Assembly (NCBI GenBank): GCA_000092065.1
Contig: CP000601.1
Length of the DNA stretch: 64,000 bases
Reading direction: 5' to 3' (one strand)
Source of the DNA: Ostreococcus lucimarinus
Lineage: Eukaryota
Part shown: in pieces, positions 9,879 to 42,131 of the stretch
Numbering within the stretch: the first letter of the stretch is position 1
Layout: every line of letters begins with the position of its first letter
Made by a program: the position numbers and the translations under genes
Notes under the pieces: model-generated
Told to the model about the DNA's origin: nothing
What the model saw: only the letters and a program-made list of their open reading frames with translations
The model's database searches: none

Positions 9879-11633
9879 TTACTTGGAGCCTTCGCCTTCG
9901 GCGCCGGAAGAACTTCGGGAGCCTTCTTTCGAACCTTCGTTCGAACCTTCGTTCGAGCCGTGACCGTACTCGTCCACTCCCTTGCCTTCGACTTCGCCGA
10001 CCTTGTTCGCCTCGCTCGCGTTGGTTTCGTTCGACTTTGGTTTGTTGTCCGATCCGTTTGAGACGTTTTCAGTCGTCGTCGTCGTCGTCGTCGTTTCATC
10101 GTTGTTTCGAGTGAACTGTCCGCGAACGCGAGGACGGGATTCCGAGAGCTTTTGTCGCGAAGGGTAAAGAACTTTCTTTTCGAAGTTCCTTTCCTTGCGC
10201 TTCTTCAAAAAGCGTCGAATCGCCGCGGCGCGATGCTCGGCGGCTTGGCTCGAGCTCGTCTGCTGGGTGTGATCGGCCGCAGTTTGTAAAACGTTGAAAA
10301 ACGGATTCGCCATATACGATTGATCCATCACTGAAGCGTCGACCGAAGACGCCGCCACCGCGGCGGCGGCGGCGGCGGCGGCGGAGAATTGGTTCATATC
10401 GGCGTACGGCGGCATCGGCGGCGGCACGGGCATTTCCATCTTCGGCATAATCGGTCCGTAAAATTTGGCGAAATCTGACGGTGGCATCATGGAAGACGCT
10501 TCATAAAACGAGTGATGCTGCTGCGTCAAGTCAACGCTCATCATTTGCACCGCGGTATCCTTGTTTTCGTTCTTAAGGTAGTTTTGAAACCCCTTGAACG
10601 CCGAACGCGAGTTTGATCGTCGAACGACGACGTGCTCAGACGCGTGCTCTGGTAAAGAGAGTTCGAGCATAGTCGTTGCCCCACCGTGCGCCTTGATGAG
10701 TTGCACGCTCAAGCCGCGGAACTTTTCGCCGTCGTTTGGATCACGCTGGCCCGACCCCGAGCCTTCGTGGGAGCCGCTACCGCTTCCCGTGCCTTGACCC
10801 GAGCCGCCCGAGCCGCAGTCTCCCGACCCACCCTCGCGACTGGCCCATCGATCGATCGCTTCGGCTTCGGCGCGTCTCGTGAGCGGTTTTTCGTTGTATT
10901 GATTATCGCTCCCCGAATCGTTTTGCCCACCGCCCGAGCCCCCCGCGACTTTTTCCCTGCTCGTGAGCTTGGTGAGCGACGACTTTGCGCTCCCGCCGAC
11001 GTTGTCGTTTGGATCCATGCAGTTCCCCGAACCCGAACCCTCACCTTCAACGCTACCACTTTCGTGGCTTTTTAACGCCCGCGTGTGCGCCAAGCTCTCC
11101 TTCAACTCGATGCGGTTCACCGGTTTCGTCAAGAAACCGGCGGCGCCCGAATTTTCAAATCGCGTCTTGCACGCCTTGCGCTCGTCCACGGTGGACATGA
11201 TGACGATCGGCACCCCGCGCAGGGTTTCGTTCGCCTTACACGCCTCCACCAGTTCGACTTCCCCGTCGAGTTCGGGCATCAACACGTCGAGCAAAATCAT
11301 ATCCACCGACGTGTCCTCCCTCGCGCTCTTCGGCGCCCCCCGCAAGACGTCCAAGACTTCGTTCCCATTCGTCGCCGCCACCACCTCCACCCCGAGCTCG
11401 CGCAGCATCGATTCCACCATCTTTCGCGTGTGCGCGTCGTCCGTCGCCAGCAGCACTCTCAAGTGCGCGCCCGCGTCGTTCAACCTCGGTCGCGCGCTCT
11501 TCCCATTCGTCTTCGCGCGCGCGCGTCCCGCGCGTCCCCCCCCCCCGCCCGCGTTTCTCGCGCTCGCGTCCTCGACCGCGTCCGCGAGCGCGTCCGCGAG
11601 TCGCGTCGCGCCCATCGCGTCGTCGTCCCGCAT
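9879..11633 (-). CDS. TOC1: TOC1-like pseudo-response regulator: N-terminal receiver domain plus C-terminal CCT motif
   Basis: The receiver reads LRVLLATDDAHTRKMVESMLRELGVEVVAATNGNEVL...DMILLDVLMPELDG...VPIVIMST...FLTKP. The C-terminal CCT motif reads RAAAIRRFLKKRKERNFEKKVLYPSRQKLSESRPRVRGQFTRN. The middle is low-complexity Gly/Ser with a poly-Thr run. The ATG at 11633 was confirmed. Confidence 0.75.
   Translation of the reverse strand: MRDDDAMGATRLADALADAVEDASARNAGGGGGRAGRARAKTNGKSARPRLNDAGAHLRVLLATDDAHTRKMVESMLRELGVEVVAATNGNEVLDVLRGAPKSAREDTSVDMILLDVLMPELDGEVELVEACKANETLRGVPIVIMSTVDERKACKTRFENSGAAGFLTKPVNRIELKESLAHTRALKSHESGSVEGEGSGSGNCMDPNDNVGGSAKSSLTKLTSREKVAGGSGGGQNDSGSDNQYNEKPLTRRAEAEAIDRWASREGGSGDCGSGGSGQGTGSGSGSHEGSGSGQRDPNDGEKFRGLSVQLIKAHGGATTMLELSLPEHASEHVVVRRSNSRSAFKGFQNYLKNENKDTAVQMMSVDLTQQHHSFYEASSMMPPSDFAKFYGPIMPKMEMPVPPPMPPYADMNQFSAAAAAAAAVAASSVDASVMDQSYMANPFFNVLQTAADHTQQTSSSQAAEHRAAAIRRFLKKRKERNFEKKVLYPSRQKLSESRPRVRGQFTRNNDETTTTTTTTENVSNGSDNKPKSNETNASEANKVGEVEGKGVDEYGHGSNEGSNEGSKEGSRSSSGAEGEGSK
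10072..10092. repeat. (GTC)7 coding microsatellite, encoding poly-Thr in the TOC1-like gene on the minus strand
   Basis: gtcgtcgtcgtcgtcgtcgtc read directly from the sequence. It translates as TTTTTTT within the ORF 9879..11633. Confidence 0.7.
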
Positions 11634-12057
11634 CGTCGCTCGCGCCCGTCGCCGCGCCTCCGTCGCGTCGTCGAGCGCGGTCCGGACGACGCGACGGACG
11701 CTGGTTTTCGCGCCGCGCCGCGCCGCGCCGCGCCGCGCGTCGATCGCGCCGCCGCGTCGATCGTCGCGCGCGTCGTGTGCCTGAGAATGCGGGGCGCGCG
11801 CGACGCGCGATCGACGAGTCGCGACCCGGCGCGGGGGGGCTCGAGCGAATCTTTTCGACGACGCTTTTTCGCCGCGAAAAAGCGAAACGCGGGATATTCG
11901 CAGACGTGTGATAAATGTACGTATTACACGCGTGTTGAAGGGTATGCAAAAGGGATCTCCCGCAATGATGCGTCCCGTTGAAAATATCTTCGAGCCGACG
12001 GCGGCGCGGTGGGCGGTCGGTCGCTCGGCGACGCCGGGCCGGGACGGGAAGGCGGAC

Positions 12058-13008
12058 TCACGCGCTCGAGGCGAGGGCGGCGGCGACGTCGGAGCCGAGG
12101 GCGGAGGCGAGATAATCGCCGATCGACGCGAACGGACGCGCGACGGCGAGGTCGAGGGCGAATAAGGCGAACCAAAACGCGCTGGGACGCGTCAAAAAGG
12201 CGCGGACGTAGTCGGCGTCCGACGAGACGACGTCGCGCGCGCGAAGTGAGGCGCCGAACGTGGACCAGTTCAGGAGCCAAATCAAACCAAACGTGCCGTG
12301 AGCCCATATCGTGGGGAGACCGGGTCTCGCGGCTTCGAGCGCGGCGACGGAGGCGACGTCGAGGACGCGCTGCGCCGGGAAAATTTGAGCTCCGAAACCG
12401 AGCGTGCCGAGCCACACCGCGAGCGCGGCGCGCTTGTCGTCCTTCGTGAACAGGACGATGTATGCCGACGTCATCGTTTGCCACACGAATGGCAACCACG
12501 CCAACCAAAGGGTGTCCAATCCGGGGACTCTGAGCGCGGGATCGACGACGCCCGCGAAGCGAACGCACTCCCACGTCAACACGAACTGAAACGCGATCGA
12601 TCGCGCGCTGAGCTCGGTTTTCCGCCAACCGCGGCTCTTTGAAAGTGGTAGTCCACTCAACGCGCACACCGTCGCCAGCGTGAGCGCGACGCCGGTCAAC
12701 GCGGGGTCCAGCCCCGGAGTCGCGCCGCCACCGCTCGTCAGCGCCGTCGCGTCGTCCAGCGCCCACTGGCCCATCATTCCCGCCCCTAGCGCGGTATATA
12801 ACGTTCCCGACACCGCGTGCGTGTGATACTTGTCCGCCTTGGTCCACATCCTGCGAAACGCGCGCTCGGGAGTCATTTCGTCGTCCTTTGAGCTCGTCGA
12901 CGCCTTCGCGCTCGTCGACGCCCGCGCGCGCGCGCTCGTCGACGCGCGCGCGCGTGGAGACGCGCATGACGACACTGTGTGCTTCGGCCACGCGTGGACG
13001 CGAGACAT
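12058..13008 (-). CDS. Hypothetical polytopic membrane protein
   Basis: 316 aa with several hydrophobic segments (LTGVALTLATVCALSGLPL, TLWLAWLPFVWQTMTSAYIVLF, GTFGLIWLLNW). I recognise no family. An Arg-rich ORF in another frame (11924..13057) was rejected. Confidence 0.35.
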   Translation of the reverse strand: MSRVHAWPKHTVSSCASPRARASTSARARASTSAKASTSSKDDEMTPERAFRRMWTKADKYHTHAVSGTLYTALGAGMMGQWALDDATALTSGGGATPGLDPALTGVALTLATVCALSGLPLSKSRGWRKTELSARSIAFQFVLTWECVRFAGVVDPALRVPGLDTLWLAWLPFVWQTMTSAYIVLFTKDDKRAALAVWLGTLGFGAQIFPAQRVLDVASVAALEAARPGLPTIWAHGTFGLIWLLNWSTFGASLRARDVVSSDADYVRAFLTRPSAFWFALFALDLAVARPFASIGDYLASALGSDVAAALASSA

Positions 13009-17731: not shown

Positions 17732-18742
17732 TTATCCTCTCGCCCTGGCGCGACGCGCCTCCTCTTCCCCGGCTAAACGATCGCTCACGCTCACCATCCC
17801 ACGACGGTCGAGGAACGGATACTCGCCCACCCAGACGTTAAGGAACGGAAAATACGCCTCGCGAACGGCTTGAAACGTGTAAAAGTACGGGTCGTCTGAT
17901 GTCACGATGAGCTCGACGTCGTCGCCTACGTTGATATCCGCGTACTCCGCTTTTAAAGGAACTTTCAGCGGTACTCGCGCCCCGGATCTATCTCCGACGA
18001 CTAGGTTAAACATCCAATCTACGCTCGACGTCCCGCGCGTCTCCACGGGCTCGACTGAGATGACTCTGGCGCGCCACAGGCCCGCGTATTTAGCGCTTCG
18101 CACCTTTGAGTTACGTCGCGCCGCTAACGCCACGGGTGCCCACAAAAAAAACGTGCTCGCGGGCACGGCGAGCGCCGGCGCCGCATTCGCGGTCAACACC
18201 GTCGTCAACAGCGACAACCCCACGCGTTGAAACGCGGTATCGTTATCCCCCCAAAAGTACCCGTATTGCTCCCCCGTCGCCGCGATGGGCAGCACGCGTT
18301 CGTAATCCCGCTGCGTCAGCACCAGCACGTTCGGTCGCGCTCCACCTCGATCCCGTCGCTCGTTTCGTCGCTCTCGCGGTTCCCTTCGCGCCGCTCGCCG
18401 TTGTCGCGTCGACGCCGACGCCGTCGCCCCTCGCGCGCGTCGCGCCTCGTCCTCGTCCAGCCACCGCGCGTCCTCGGCCGCGCGTCCCGACGCGCTCGCG
18501 CTCGCGTCGTCGTCGTCGTCGTCGTCCATCATAGCGTCGTCCGCGTCCGCACCGCGTCGAGCGACGCGAAGCGCGCGTCCGCGGCGCGTCGTCGAGCCGC
18601 CGCCGGAATTGAATGCCCGCGCGATTCCCTCGCGACTCCTTCGCCGCGCGCGCGCCGCGCCGTTCGTCGCCGCGCGCGTCGTCGCGCGCGATGTCCACCG
18701 CGTCGTCGGCGCGCGCGCGCGCGCGTCGACCGACGCGGACAT
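17732..18742 (-). CDS. Conserved-looking hypothetical protein, possibly organellar
   Basis: The C-terminal ~200 aa are non-repetitive (YGYFWGDNDTAFQRVGLSLLTTVLTANAA...YFPFLNVWVGEYPFLDRRGMVSVSDRL). The N-terminus is Arg-rich, and an internal Met (MMDDDD, ~18532) may be the true start. Confidence 0.4.
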   Translation of the reverse strand: MSASVDARARAPTTRWTSRATTRAATNGAARARRRSREGIARAFNSGGGSTTRRGRALRVARRGADADDAMMDDDDDDDASASASGRAAEDARWLDEDEARRARGATASASTRQRRAARREPRERRNERRDRGGARPNVLVLTQRDYERVLPIAATGEQYGYFWGDNDTAFQRVGLSLLTTVLTANAAPALAVPASTFFLWAPVALAARRNSKVRSAKYAGLWRARVISVEPVETRGTSSVDWMFNLVVGDRSGARVPLKVPLKAEYADINVGDDVELIVTSDDPYFYTFQAVREAYFPFLNVWVGEYPFLDRRGMVSVSDRLAGEEEARRARARG

Positions 18743-25542: not shown

Positions 25543-27159
25543 CTATTTGCGACCTATTCCGCTTATCTCAGCGTCGACCGCCGCTACGTAATCTTGGATT
25601 TGAAACTTTCTCTTGCAACCGGCGTAATTCATATACCGCACTTTACCGAACACCGCGCGCTCTTTCCATCCTTGATCGTGCACACCGGCAATGCTCCACA
25701 TACAACCAACGTAGCCGTTGGGATCGAGACCGTCTAACGCGTAAGCGTCGTTGAGTTGAATCGCCGTCTGCAGGGCCACCTCCGGCGACGGCGTCCACTC
25801 AAGAATCTTCTTCGCCCAGTACATTCTCATGAACCCATGCATTCGTCCGAGATGGTATAATTCTTTCTGAGCCGCGTTCCAAAGCTCGTCGTGCGTGTTG
25901 CCACGCTCGAGTGTTTTGTAATCGTACACGTACTCGCGAACGTCGCGGGCGTGCAAACTCAGTGAATCTTGCGCCCATTGACTCGCTCCTTGCAACGAGT
26001 CGTAATACGGATTGAAGAGACAATAGTTGTCTGATAATTCCCTTCGAACGATGAGCTCTTCCAAGTAGCTATCGATCGCCTCGTCGTCTACGATTCCCCG
26101 AAGTTGCGCAGCTTCCCACGCGGCGCGACGTGGCGACAGCTGGCCGTGATTCAAGTACGGCGAGAGGCGAGACACGGCGCGCGGCGACGTCGGCTTGTTT
26201 CGCTCCCCGTAGAGTGTCAATCGCTGTGGGAGGAAAGAGTCGACATTCGGATCGAGCAGCGCGGCTAAGGCGGCACGTTCACCCGGTTTGATCCAGTCAA
26301 CCTCTGGGACGTGCGCGCCCTTGACGCGCGCGGTGTCAATCAATGCGTCCCAATCCGTCTCACTTGGCGTCAACGCGTCCGGCGCGGCGATGAGATCATC
26401 TAACGCTTGCGGTGCGGTGAGAAAATCCCCGAGATTTCGATGAATCTTCGGCCGAATCGTTCTCGCCGCGTACTCTTGCTTATCGCTCGTCACCCACGCC
26501 GGCACGACGTTGTGCGCGTCCACTTCAATCACCGGAACCTCCACCACACGCGCCACCGCTTCCCTCGCCGCACGCCCCTCTCGCAACGGCGAAAAGTCAC
26601 ACACGACCGCACTCGCATTCAGCGTCTCGCACGTCTCCACGATTCCTCCCGCGACGTCGCTTCCCGTCGTCGTTCGCGTCGACACTCCTCGCGCTCGCAA
26701 ATCCTCATCCAATTCCTTCAACCCCTTCAGCGCGAACACCGCCCTGCGCGCGCCTCCGATGCCGCTCCCGCTCAAATCTGTCCCCACGTGCATCGCCACG
26801 ACGAGCGGGACGCGCCTTTCGTTCGCCAATTCCATCGCTCGTCCCAGCGCGTCGTTATTCGCGCACCGCCTGTCCCGGTCGCACCAGTACACCACCGGCC
26901 CCGCGCTCGCGCTCGCGCTCGCGCTCGCGCGCGCGCGCGCCGACGCATCCAACGCCGCCTTCGCCGCGTCGTTCATCCCTCGGCACCGTCGCGCGTCCAC
27001 GCCATCGCGCGCACCGCGCGTCGTCGTCGCCGTCGCTGTCGTCGTCGTCGCACCGCGCGCGCCCGTCGTCGCGCCCGCGCGCCGTCGCGCGAGCGCGCGC
27101 GCGAGTCGCGCGCGCGCGCCGTGCGCGCGCACGGCGTCTCGAATCGCGAGAGACGCCAT
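25543..27159 (-). CDS. PHR: Deoxyribodipyrimidine photolyase, class II (CPD photolyase)
   Basis: The class II C-terminal FAD-binding region is present (LGRMHGFMRMYWAKKILEWT...YVGCMWSIAGVHDQGWKERAVFGKVRYMNYAGCKRKF). The ATG at 27159 was confirmed. Confidence 0.8.
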   Translation of the reverse strand: MASLAIRDAVRAHGARARLARALARRRAGATTGARGATTTTATATTTRGARDGVDARRCRGMNDAAKAALDASARARASASASASAGPVVYWCDRDRRCANNDALGRAMELANERRVPLVVAMHVGTDLSGSGIGGARRAVFALKGLKELDEDLRARGVSTRTTTGSDVAGGIVETCETLNASAVVCDFSPLREGRAAREAVARVVEVPVIEVDAHNVVPAWVTSDKQEYAARTIRPKIHRNLGDFLTAPQALDDLIAAPDALTPSETDWDALIDTARVKGAHVPEVDWIKPGERAALAALLDPNVDSFLPQRLTLYGERNKPTSPRAVSRLSPYLNHGQLSPRRAAWEAAQLRGIVDDEAIDSYLEELIVRRELSDNYCLFNPYYDSLQGASQWAQDSLSLHARDVREYVYDYKTLERGNTHDELWNAAQKELYHLGRMHGFMRMYWAKKILEWTPSPEVALQTAIQLNDAYALDGLDPNGYVGCMWSIAGVHDQGWKERAVFGKVRYMNYAGCKRKFQIQDYVAAVDAEISGIGRK

Positions 27160-38676: not shown

Positions 38677-38960
38677 CGCGTCGTGCTTCGCGTCGTCGCG
38701 TTGTGTCGCGACGCGTCGCGTCCGCGCGCGTTCGGGGTCCGCGCGGCGCGGCGCGCGCGCGGAGGGCGCGCGCGCGAGGGCGCGCGCGCGAGGACGGTCT
38801 CAATCGGACGGTCTCGTCGAACGGAAGGCGCGAGCGCGGGCGGCGCGGGCGCGCGGGCGGTCGGACGGACGACGAACGACGCCATCGAGCGACGCGCGGC
38901 GGCGATGCGGTGACGACGCGCGCGAATCGGGCGAGGAAACGACGCGCGCGCGCGTCCGGG

Positions 38961-41900
38961 ATGCGCGCGCGCGGACGCGGGCGCGAGCGCGCGACGGGGG
39001 CGCGCGAGGAGGCGACGCGACGACGCGCGGGATGTCGTTGGGGACACTCGACGCGCGCGCTGACGGCGCTCGCGCCGGCGCTGTGCGTCACGCTCGGCAG
39101 CGGGGGGGAGACGATGGTGACCGTGGTCGCGATCGGGGCGAGCGCGGCGCGCGGGATGGACGCGATGGGGAACGGAGAGGGGGCGCTGGGCGCGATTTGG
39201 ACGACGGCGACGGCGGCGCTCGGGACGCTGCTGACGAGAGGGAGCTGGCGGACGAGCGCGACGGTCGGGACGTCGTGCGCGCTGCTCGCGGTGAATGGGG
39301 TGAATTTGTTTTTATTTTGCTCGTGGTGCACGCTGCAATTTCGGTGGATACACGAGTCGCACGCGGGCGCGGCGGCGACGTGCGAGCGTTTGATTTTCGC
39401 GCTGTGTCCGCCGACGACGACGACGATTCTGACGTGGGCGTTCGCGAGCGCGAGCGCGGGAGCTGAGAGAGCGGCGTTTTACGGCTCGGTCGTGTCGTTG
39501 ATCACGCATCGGATGTTTTTGTTTCCGTGCGCGAGCGCGTGCGCGGCGGTGACGAAGACGAACGGGCCTCCGTCGGACAAGCGCTCGGCGTTGACCGAGA
39601 GCGACGCCGAGTACGCCACCGTGGCCACGCTCGGCTTACCCGTCGCGTTGTATTTATGGACGAACCTCGACACACTGTTCAAGTCCCTCGATCACGTCTT
39701 CGCGTGTGGGGCGTTGGTGACGGTCCCGGTGTTGTATTTAATAGCCGCCGGCACGGAGAAGTCGTTGTGGTGGCGCGCGCGCGGCGTCGACGTGGCGTCG
39801 AAAAGGATGGAAACCGCCGTGCTCCTCTTCGCACTCACTGGATTTGCGGTGAGCGTTGAAGGTGGAATAATATTTAGTGAATTTGCCGAGTACATCGAAA
39901 TCATGGCTCCTTTGAATTACATCATGGTGACGGTTTCCGTCCACAGCGCGCTGGCAGTTTTCGCCGCGTGCTACGCAAACGCCGTCGGCGACGGCGTCCC
40001 GACGGGTGCGGTGAAGGCGACGTTGGCTCTGTCTACGTCGACCGCAATTTGTGCTTTGGGTGCACCTCTGTGGATGATTCCGATCCCCATCGCCGGATCA
40101 TCGTCATTCGTCAAATATTATTACGAGGACCGAGAGCCGAAGGATTACGGCGTGTTTGCCGCGAGTTGCGTCGGATGCTTTTCGTGGTTTCTTTCGAAGA
40201 ATTTCTGGTCACTCGATGTGCGCGTGGGAGCTTTCGACGTCAAACAATTGTGTGTCGCCATATTACTCCTCGCCGTGGCGGCTTTGGCTTTGCCAGCGGT
40301 GTTGAATACGAAAAGCGCGCGCGCGCCGACGGTTGGCGTCCTCGTCGTCTGTTACGTCTCGGCGCTCGCAACGATTGAACAAATCCTGAGTCAAGCGACG
40401 CATGACGACGATTCTTTGATTTATCCACCATATTTGGTCATCGTCACTTCCATCAGCGGCTTCTTGGCGAGTCGAGGCCTCGTCATCAGCGGGAGAATCA
40501 GTCGCGAATTTGGCTGGGTGATGCAGAGCGTGTGCGGCGCAAAGCTCTCCATGCTCTTTGTTCGCGGTTTGAAGGAAATGTTCAGCGTCTTGGTGGTCGT
40601 GCTCGCCATCACCGCTCCGCACGCGATGTCACGGCGAATGACTCAATTATCTCCGGGCGCGAGCGTTGGTTATTGCGTCGCTTTGGTGTTCTCTTTGGTA
40701 TTCGCTCGGTTTGCGATGTTTGACGTTATATTTGAACTCTCGGGTCACCGACCGACGGACGCGACGCTCTTCGGTGGACTCCTCCTGATCACGGGGGCGA
40801 GCTTGGCGTCCGTGGTAACGCGACAAAGTTACGGTGATGACATGTTTAGCAAACGATTGATGATGCTCTTGAGTTTCTGTGGCGTCTTTCTCATCACCTT
40901 CCGACCGCCGATGCCTTGGAAGGGCGAGGTGGGCATGTGGTATGACGCCGAACACGTTCCCGACTCTGAAGAAGACGAAGCGAGAATGTACGGCGTGCGC
41001 GAGAACGCGCATCATGGATGGCCGAGCTGGTTGCTGATGTTAGCCGCGCTCACCGCGATATTCGCCGTCTCGTCTCCACGACAACAGACAAAATCAACGT
41101 CAACGATTCGAATCGCCTTAAGCGCCGTGTGCGGTGGGAGCGTTGGTTTATATATGGCGCTGGAATTCTTCGTCCAGCAAGTGGCGCTGACGGCACTACT
41201 ATTTGTCGCGTGTGCGCTGGTGGGAGTGTTCTTGTCTTTCACGTACAGCCCTTCGCCGAAGTCTTCGCGCTGGTTGCCTTACGTGTATTTATCGTTCGTC
41301 TCCGTTCTCGGCTTGGCGTACGTCACACAAATGGGTGGCTCAGACGAGACTGTGGACGACCATCAGGCGAGAATGGAAGGAAAATTCGGTGTCGTCGGCG
41401 TTTTCGCCGGGACTTCGCTGCAAATCGCGTTTGCTCTGAAGTTGAGAATCAAAACGAGCCTGGAGAGCGTGCAACATCGACGACGTCAAGGCGGTACTTC
41501 ACCGTTCCTTCCCGCCACTGGTCGCAGTCGTCCGGAATATTTCCGCGGTGTCGCGAGCAGAAACGAGCACAGAGAACTCAAGGCAAAGGCGATCGCTTGG
41601 ATGCCAATCATCGGGAACATCGCCACGCTCACGTCCTTTCTCGCGTGCGTGGTGCTGAGCGATGAGTTGGCCGATGGCTCCGCGTTTTCGGTCTTCGTCC
41701 TCGCGCCCATTCTGCTTCTTCTTCACCAAGACTCGGTGATATTTCCTATACTGGAAGACAGCCAACGATACGCTCCACCGCTCGCGATGATCGTGGGTAA
41801 GATGTGCTGGGACGCCGTCGCCGCCATCCTCGCCGGCCCGAACCGAGTTCACGTTCTCGCCGCGACCGCCTCCAAGTTGCCGTGGATGACGCTCAACGCG

Positions 41901-42131
41901 TTGAGTCTGCTCCTCGCTTCGGTGAATAGCATCAATTTGGTGCACTACCTCGCCACGAGCGTTCGCACGGACGGGATGACGCTCATCTTGACCGCCCCGC
42001 TCGCCGTCGTGGCGCCGTTTCTTTCAAAAATTCCCTCCGTGCGCGCGCTCGCCTTCACCAGTCTCATCGCCGTCGTCACCCAGCACACCCTCCAGCGTCG
42101 AGCGAAGATCGTCGGGCTGAAGTATTTATAG
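38961..42131 (+). CDS. Large polytopic membrane protein (about 20 predicted TM helices)
   Basis: About 1050 aa of alternating hydrophobic segments after an Arg-rich leader. The track ORF starts at 38703, and internal ATGs at ~38961 and ~39114 are the plausible starts. Confidence 0.5.
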   Translation: MRARGRGRERATGAREEATRRRAGCRWGHSTRALTALAPALCVTLGSGGETMVTVVAIGASAARGMDAMGNGEGALGAIWTTATAALGTLLTRGSWRTSATVGTSCALLAVNGVNLFLFCSWCTLQFRWIHESHAGAAATCERLIFALCPPTTTTILTWAFASASAGAERAAFYGSVVSLITHRMFLFPCASACAAVTKTNGPPSDKRSALTESDAEYATVATLGLPVALYLWTNLDTLFKSLDHVFACGALVTVPVLYLIAAGTEKSLWWRARGVDVASKRMETAVLLFALTGFAVSVEGGIIFSEFAEYIEIMAPLNYIMVTVSVHSALAVFAACYANAVGDGVPTGAVKATLALSTSTAICALGAPLWMIPIPIAGSSSFVKYYYEDREPKDYGVFAASCVGCFSWFLSKNFWSLDVRVGAFDVKQLCVAILLLAVAALALPAVLNTKSARAPTVGVLVVCYVSALATIEQILSQATHDDDSLIYPPYLVIVTSISGFLASRGLVISGRISREFGWVMQSVCGAKLSMLFVRGLKEMFSVLVVVLAITAPHAMSRRMTQLSPGASVGYCVALVFSLVFARFAMFDVIFELSGHRPTDATLFGGLLLITGASLASVVTRQSYGDDMFSKRLMMLLSFCGVFLITFRPPMPWKGEVGMWYDAEHVPDSEEDEARMYGVRENAHHGWPSWLLMLAALTAIFAVSSPRQQTKSTSTIRIALSAVCGGSVGLYMALEFFVQQVALTALLFVACALVGVFLSFTYSPSPKSSRWLPYVYLSFVSVLGLAYVTQMGGSDETVDDHQARMEGKFGVVGVFAGTSLQIAFALKLRIKTSLESVQHRRRQGGTSPFLPATGRSRPEYFRGVASRNEHRELKAKAIAWMPIIGNIATLTSFLACVVLSDELADGSAFSVFVLAPILLLLHQDSVIFPILEDSQRYAPPLAMIVGKMCWDAVAAILAGPNRVHVLAATASKLPWMTLNALSLLLASVNSINLVHYLATSVRTDGMTLILTAPLAVVAPFLSKIPSVRALAFTSLIAVVTQHTLQRRAKIVGLKYL

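Follow-up and report, generated by a model that had tools for sequence, protein, structure and literature searches.

The pseudo-response regulators (PRRs) of the plant circadian clock are 'pseudo' in the sense that the phospho-acceptor Asp of the receiver domain has been replaced, by Glu in the case of angiosperms, and the question raised by a TOC1-like gene of the alga Ostreococcus lucimarinus is whether its product deserves that name or instead retains the makings of a genuine response regulator. The gene lies in a 64,000-nucleotide stretch of contig CP000601.1 (GenBank assembly GCA_000092065.1; hereafter the window), for which an earlier note, made from the letters alone, had proposed that one open reading frame (ORF) joins a receiver to a C-terminal CCT motif, that every phospho-acceptor residue of the receiver is present, and that the protein may be a phospho-competent regulator in an ancestral state of the TOC1 family. 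Judged from its sequence, the ORF is the TOC1 ortholog of O. lucimarinus, and most of what had been claimed for it holds, with corrections to the acidic pocket, the conserved hydroxyl residue, a microsatellite and the contrast with land plants that are given below. For the reading as a whole, namely a TOC1 protein with a CheY-fold receiver that retains its Asp, a CCT motif, an Evening Element in its promoter and a proposed phosphorelay input, we estimate a probability of about 90%.

The gene can be named with assurance because its product matches an O. lucimarinus NCBI protein exactly, because it is duplicated and because an Evening Element stands at the published place. The NCBI entries XP_001420962.1 and XP_001422932.1 (O. 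lucimarinus CCE9901 'predicted protein', 578 amino acids) are exact substrings of the window ORF, the NCBI gene model starting at the second Met, M7 (codon 11613-11615); above the first ATG, 110 codons contain no in-frame ATG, GTG or TTG. That one 578-residue protein carries two accessions on two contigs fits the duplication described in a survey of the clock genes of Mamiellales, published in 2025, which lists two O. lucimarinus TOC1 coding sequences with 100% nucleotide identity, a feature that sets this species apart from O. tauri (PMC12704426). The ORF is one of these two identical copies, and the alga has no PRR-type clock gene besides TOC1. The Evening Element, AAAATATCT, occurs once in the window, where 0.08 copies are expected by chance; it stands upstream of the gene, 348-356 bp from the first ATG and 374 bp from the M7 start, and, counted from M7, it coincides with the element published for O. 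lucimarinus TOC1 at -375(-) (PMC12704426).

Database matches agree with this assignment. At the top of the matches stands a cluster in which 125 near-identical proteins, the O. lucimarinus NCBI protein among them, are grouped. The identical 584-residue product has been called on many contigs from marine metagenomes, and six of these align to the window at 99.5-99.8% identity across ~21.6 kb with neighboring genes identical in kind; an exact-sequence look-up found a record for the 584-residue product and none for the 578-residue NCBI-type product. Related Ostreococcus proteins are collinear with the window TOC1 at 55-71% identity, the upper end being held by a full-length, O. tauri-like protein (P0003; ~71%, fully collinear) whose receiver region is nearly residue-for-residue that of the truncated O. 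tauri 'APRR-like protein' (P0009). Both domain searches cleared the curated Pfam cutoffs (30.2 bits for Response_reg, 28.4 bits for CCT), as the proposed architecture predicts, and the positions of these and other features are collected in Table 1.

Table 1. Features of the TOC1 gene and its upstream region, in window coordinates (aa, amino acid residues; an empty cell means that no value applies or was recorded)
Feature	Position	Strand	Basis
TOC1 coding sequence, 584 aa plus stop, ATG start, apparently intronless	9879..11633	-	ORF analysis
Receiver (REC), Pfam PF00072 Response_reg, aa 60-181	11091..11456	-	57.2 bits, E=2.2e-15
T64-D65-D66, beta1-alpha1 loop, predicted metal-binding acidic pocket	11436..11444	-	
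D116 (codon GAC), predicted phospho-acceptor Asp, C-terminal end of beta3	11286..11288	-	equivalent to CheY D57 (BLASTP)
S147-T148, end of beta4 (CheY T87/A88 region)	11190..11195	-	model and column counts
F167-L-T-K170-P171, aromatic switch (CheY Y106) then Lys-Pro (CheY K109-P110)	11121..11135	-	
Conserved linker motif FRGLSVQLIKAHGGATTMLELSLP, aa 305-328, ending in LELSL (aa 323-327)	10650..10721	-	alignment
Conserved linker motif RRSNSRSAFKGF, aa 338-349, equivalent to the ...SAFSRY motif of Riccia PRRs	10587..10622	-	alignment
(GCG)8.3 microsatellite in the linker, poly-Ala aa 418-425	10360..10384		repeat scan
CCT motif, Pfam PF06203, aa 468-510	10104..10232	-	55.8 bits, E=4.6e-15
(GTC)7.7 microsatellite, poly-Thr aa 514-521 (T514-T521)	10072..10094		repeat scan
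Evening Element AAAATATCT, predicted CCA1-type binding site	11981..11989	+	opposite orientation to TOC1

The receiver is predicted to have the fold of a true response regulator. An AlphaFold2 model, built on an alignment of the 28 homologs to which all residue counts given here refer, shows the (beta-alpha)5 arrangement of CheY over residues 59-189, mostly at a pLDDT (predicted local distance difference test) of ~80-95, with its elements in the order beta1 (59-63), alpha1 (67-79), beta2 (83-87), alpha2 (90-98), beta3 (112-116), alpha3 (124-134), beta4 (143-147), alpha4 (152-161), beta5 (164-169) and alpha5 (174-189). The top Foldseek matches in the PDB are all genuine receivers (RR468, PhoB, CheY, SLN1 and AtARR1), with target-normalized template modeling (TM) scores of 0.83-0.88 and a root-mean-square deviation of ~2 A. 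The central Asp claimed for the protein is D116, within ILLDVLMPELDG; it is Asp in 27 of the 28 homologs and Glu only in P0031, so the substitution that would have spoken against the claim is not seen. The Lys of FLTKP is likewise retained as K170, which follows beta5 together with P171, both being invariant (28/28), as is the aromatic character of position 167 (F or Y, 28/28). For the Thr of IVIMST the proposal was only partly right, in that Thr is indeed present as T148 (25/28) while the hydroxyl residue that is invariant in the family at the end of beta4 is the adjacent S147 (28/28); BLASTP places T148 opposite CheY T87, and either residue can be argued for. The fold, an Asp that ends beta3, a Ser/Thr at beta4, a Lys after beta5 and the aromatic switch are therefore all found, and the replacement of Asp that defines a 'pseudo' receiver is not. 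By homology the protein belongs to the TOC1/PRR lineage, yet by the identity of its acceptor residue it is not a 'pseudo' regulator, a distinction that has already been published for O. tauri TOC1 (OtTOC1).

The acidic pocket calls for a more guarded statement. The string LLATDD (residues 61-66) had been read as an intact acidic pair, but in strict register T64 falls on CheY D12, D65 on CheY D13 and D66 on CheY F14, an assignment on which BLASTP against CheY, phmmer against the SLN1 receiver and the secondary-structure boundaries of the AlphaFold model all agree. It also accords with the spacing in CheY, PhoB and Spo0F, in which the conserved Gly that follows alpha1 stands 16 residues beyond the metal-binding Asp; this suits D65 and not D66. 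The essential equivalent of D13 is kept, and the pocket consists of T-D plus an extra D, where D66 would provide an adjacent additional carboxylate and might compensate for T64; the claim that all residues are present stands for the Asp, the Ser/Thr and the Lys, and calls for a reservation at the first acidic position, which is ambiguous. Among the 18 homologs that cover position 64, nine have T and seven have E: Thr is found in O. lucimarinus, the O. tauri-like sequences and close relatives, and Glu in other Ostreococcus lineages and in the liverwort Riccia (E-D-D). Set beside CheY itself, to which it is 28% identical, the window receiver has the equivalents of D13, D57 and K109 in D65, D116 and K170 and shares the fold of CheY, PhoB, RR468, SLN1-R1 and AtARR1; it differs from these receivers in the Thr at the D12 position, in a 13-residue insertion between alpha2 and beta3 (residues 99-111, of lower pLDDT) and in its output, which passes through a linker, predicted to be disordered, to a CCT motif rather than to a bacterial DNA-binding domain.

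The identification of the C-terminal motif as CCT is borne out by its ungapped alignment to the CCT chains of rice HD1 (7c9o) and Arabidopsis CO (7cvo) in solved NF-Y/DNA complexes, in addition to the Pfam match, and the CCT string quoted in the earlier note is present; CCT domains of the HD1/CO type bind DNA jointly with the NF-YB/NF-YC histone-fold dimer. The motif is atypical in sequence, reading KKVLYPSRQKLSESRPR where nearly all relatives have KKVRYASR..LAE.RPR. The differences are L489 (R in 26 of 28), P491 (A in 20 of 28, at an otherwise variable position) and S497 (A in 26 of 28), where the O. tauri-like proteins, like almost every other homolog, have R, A and A, and at these three positions the window sequence is the sole intact CCT among the homologs to deviate. 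Because the same protein occurs on many metagenome contigs, the substitutions are not a sequencing error. By residue count, position 497 would correspond to A562 of Arabidopsis TOC1, the residue changed in toc1-1 and toc1-3 (A562V) and stated to be conserved across every sequence (PMC2292679). A separate irregularity is seen in the homolog P0010, whose CCT is lost after RKERK and finds no Pfam CCT match, consistent with the truncated CCT reported in Ostreococcus sp. RCC809.

How such a protein would work in the clock has been outlined from studies of O. tauri. By analogy with that literature, CCA1 would repress TOC1 through the Evening Element and TOC1 would feed back on CCA1 through its CCT domain, the pair forming the core oscillator. 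Light information would enter by a His-Asp phosphorelay in which the blue-light receptor LOV-HK and the green-light rhodopsin-HK pass phosphate by way of a single HPt to D116, whose phosphorylation might in turn change the activity or the stability of TOC1. O. tauri has no histidine kinases other than LOV-HK and rhodopsin-HK, which with the single HPt have been proposed to form a phosphorelay to TOC1 (PMC12704426; PMC3130137), and the 2025 survey reports LOV-HK, Rhod-HK, HPT and CCA1 from every Mamiellales genome that it examined, O. lucimarinus among them (PMC12704426). A TOC1 of ancestral type that takes up phosphate and is served by LOV-HK or HPt is what has already been hypothesized in print for O. 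tauri; phosphorylation of the algal protein is itself a hypothesis.

Several considerations weigh against this reading and lend themselves to a different one, in which the receiver acts as a pseudo-receiver despite its Asp, serving for interaction or dimerization as in angiosperm PRRs, with the catalytic residues kept as structural relics. We found no published demonstration of phosphotransfer to algal TOC1 (PMC12704426, PMC3041508), and the 2025 survey still words the phosphorelay as 'suggesting' (PMC12704426). Thr64, in strict register, takes the place of the first acidic residue and could weaken Mg2+ binding; in the moss protein PpPRR1, which has Tyr at the first Asp of the DDK motif, phosphotransfer was not seen in vitro (PMC3041508). 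On the other hand, moss PpPRR2, with a full DDK motif, was phosphorylated in vitro (PMC3041508), D65 and D66 would still give the beta1-alpha1 loop two carboxylates, and D116, S147, K170, P171 and F/Y167 are kept in 27-28 of 28 homologs from Mamiellales to liverworts, a pattern more readily explained by selection for catalysis than by selection for the fold alone. The HK-HPt set of these genomes is moreover minimal and its possible receivers are few (PMC12704426). On this evidence a relic receiver is unlikely, although it deserves to be taken seriously, and a phospho-competent one is preferred. Three further points count against the preferred account. Neither Pfam searches of 20 long window ORFs nor the Pfam labels on matching metagenome contigs revealed a histidine kinase or HPt, the scan not covering ORFs below ~300 amino acids systematically, so that a small HPt gene is possible; in a eukaryote such genes would not be expected to be linked to TOC1. 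In published trees algal TOC1 branches as the sister of all land-plant PRRs together, and not within the TOC1 clade (PMC3017809; PMC3041508). Finally, R489L, A491P and A497S may make DNA or NF-Y binding unequal to that of O. tauri TOC1.

More radical doubts concern the gene itself, which could be an artefact, whether of two genes joined together, a stand-alone response regulator and a CCT protein, or of a misassigned frame. The linker of ~280 residues, of low complexity and predicted to be disordered, might invite that suspicion, as might the truncated or incomplete state of some public models, among them the 474-residue O. tauri NCBI model and P0010. Yet the reading frame is single and uninterrupted, the identical 584-residue product has been called on many independent contigs, and the order receiver-linker-CCT, together with the linker motifs, is collinear in aligned full-length relatives from Ostreococcus, other Mamiellales-like lineages and liverworts. 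Two genes or a misjoined ORF are accordingly rejected, the residual chance being practically nil, and the view that the ORF is one gene is sustained by its one frame and its collinear full-length homologs. Membership in another CCT or receiver family, such as the CONSTANS-like/CMF proteins or the type-B ARRs, is also very improbable, if not quite to the same degree. A CCT motif by itself is common to CO, COL and CMF proteins, and REC-GARP and REC-DOF regulators also occur in Mamiellales (PMC12704426), but the receiver and the CCT alone pass Pfam thresholds in TOC1, with no B-box, GARP/Myb or DOF domain detected. Of the relatives that carry a name, those nearest to the window protein are called 'pseudo-response regulator 1' and, in O. 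tauri, 'APRR-like protein'; the non-algal eukaryotic matches combine receiver and CCT (P0028 and P0029 of Riccia, and P0031) apart from the CCT-only P0047, and the remaining matches within P0030-P0046 are hybrid histidine kinases or response regulators similar in the receiver only. The assignment to TOC1/PRR is therefore retained.

Comparison with characterized members of the family places the window protein close to O. tauri TOC1 (OtTOC1, AY740079), which has the same receiver-linker-CCT plan, linker motifs and promoter Evening Element (PMC12704426) and identical LLATDD, ILLDVLMP, IVIMST and FLTKP motifs. OtTOC1 keeps the phospho-acceptor Asp and the DDK motif according to Corellou et al. (2009 Plant Cell), as that work is cited in PMC3130137, PMC3041508 and PMC12704426. 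Arabidopsis TOC1/PRR1 and PRR3/5/7/9 share the N-terminal receiver-like domain, the C-terminal CCT and a function in the clock, whereas angiosperm PRRs differ in having Glu instead of the phospho-acceptor Asp and a diverged first DDK position (PMC3041508; PMC9486492). The contrast drawn with land plants, whose PRRs were said to lack the Asp, was too broad: the loss is documented in angiosperms (PMC3041508), but the Asp is kept by the bryophyte PRRs, namely Physcomitrella PpPRR2/3/4 and Riccia P0028 and P0029, which also pair a receiver with a CCT. The Riccia proteins have VLTDVVMP, MMSS and LVKP motifs and share the LELSL...SAF linker motifs with the window TOC1; these bryophyte proteins are larger (~1000 residues), have an E-D-D rather than a T-D-D loop, and are ~37% identical to it in the receiver.

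The linker merits attention in its own right. As the earlier note had said, a long intervening region with Gly/Ser-rich stretches separates the two domains, and the AlphaFold2 model predicts that it is disordered; the poly-Thr run encoded by a (GTC)7 microsatellite exists as well, but it sits C-terminal to the CCT and not between the domains. Two blocks of the linker, FRGLSVQLIKAHGGATTMLELSLP and RRSNSRSAFKGF, are kept in all Mamiellales-type homologs, with the short cores ...GGATTMLELSLP and RRSNSRSAF. The first finds no match to a Pfam family. Its LELSL segment, conserved in 27 of the 28 homologs, fits the LxLxL consensus of EAR motifs, and the LELSL and SAF cores recur in liverwort PRRs as LELSLKR...SAFSRY. 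We presume that these motifs resemble, at the level of residues, the repression (EAR) region of Arabidopsis PRR5/7/9. In angiosperm PRR5/7/9 a repression motif in the linker region recruits TOPLESS (PMC9486492). A full-text literature search found no paper that connects an EAR motif with Ostreococcus TOC1. Current models of the Ostreococcus clock treat TOC1 as an activator of CCA1. It is conceivable, if speculative and rather improbable, that the single PRR of Mamiellales combines an authentic, phosphorylatable receiver with a PRR5/7/9-type EAR-like motif and acts as a phosphorelay-gated, corepressor-recruiting repressor of CCA1, the CCT output arm being perhaps functionally altered in O. lucimarinus, both identical gene copies of which carry the three substitutions. 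A conserved segment of the linker, GLSVQLIKAHGGATTMLELSLP, was considered by eye as a remnant of the C-terminal part of a histidine-kinase ATPase and was rejected for lack of evidence, there being no HATPase_c match in Pfam for the window segment or the homologous segment of P0014 (E<=10) or for full-length TOC1 (E<=0.1); the region is unstructured in the AlphaFold model. The poly-Ala run of the linker is one residue shorter in two near-identical metagenome variants of the same 90% cluster (P0053, P0054).

Some irregularities of sequences and gene models within the family should also be recorded. Residue 32 is variable (G, R, P or E) in metagenome proteins that are nearly identical and fall within the same 90% cluster; its codon (11538-11540) falls inside a G homopolymer in the part of TOC1 that encodes the N-terminal tail. 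The O. tauri NCBI model (P0009) is without the N-terminal half of the receiver, and its linker differs in part from that of the O. tauri-like P0003 in a way that looks like a frame error. Many distant homologs (among P0014-P0026, 34-40% identity) begin at MNGK and so are without beta1-alpha1-beta2 of the receiver; an uncalled intron or a wrong start may account for these models.

In the surroundings of the gene, a perfect (CGCGC)x6 tandem repeat with overlapping 16- and 24-bp GC-rich repeats lies at 11709-11775, downstream of the Evening Element and upstream of the start codon, in what is presumed to be the promoter or 5' leader of TOC1. The neighbors are housekeeping genes, which include an RNase P p40-like protein, an acyl-CoA dehydrogenase, an NSUN2-type methyltransferase, a nucleoside transporter, an LMBR1-like protein and others. 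About 14 kb from TOC1, an ORF of 538 amino acids (25543-27159, minus strand) has the N-terminal domain of DNA_photolyase (Pfam E=1.5e-30) and is a member of the photolyase/cryptochrome family; it has no FAD_binding_7 match at E<=1e-5. At the same cutoff no Pfam match was obtained for ORFs at 38703-42131 (plus strand, 1142 amino acids), 17732-18742 (minus strand, 336 amino acids) and 12058-13008 (minus strand, 316 amino acids), the last of which is the immediate upstream neighbor of TOC1 on the same strand.

The proposal of an ancestral-type, phospho-competent Ostreococcus TOC1 is supported here, but it had been published before (Corellou 2009; Satbhai 2011; Troein 2011; ISME J 2025). Retention of the Asp has been known for Ostreococcus TOC1 since 2009 and the O. 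lucimarinus gene was catalogued in 2025, so that the window adds no new concept. The CCT substitutions of O. lucimarinus, the LELSL linker motif and the variation at codon 32 and in the poly-Ala run may be less well known; the atypical CCT, the EAR-like motif and the Thr at the first acidic position are modest leads and not findings. The EAR-like motif is relevant to the question of whether algal TOC1 is an activator or a repressor. More broadly, Ostreococcus TOC1 represents the textbook minimal clock of the green lineage, with a PRR that still resembles a true response regulator and that, as proposed, would link photoreceptor histidine kinases directly to the oscillator.

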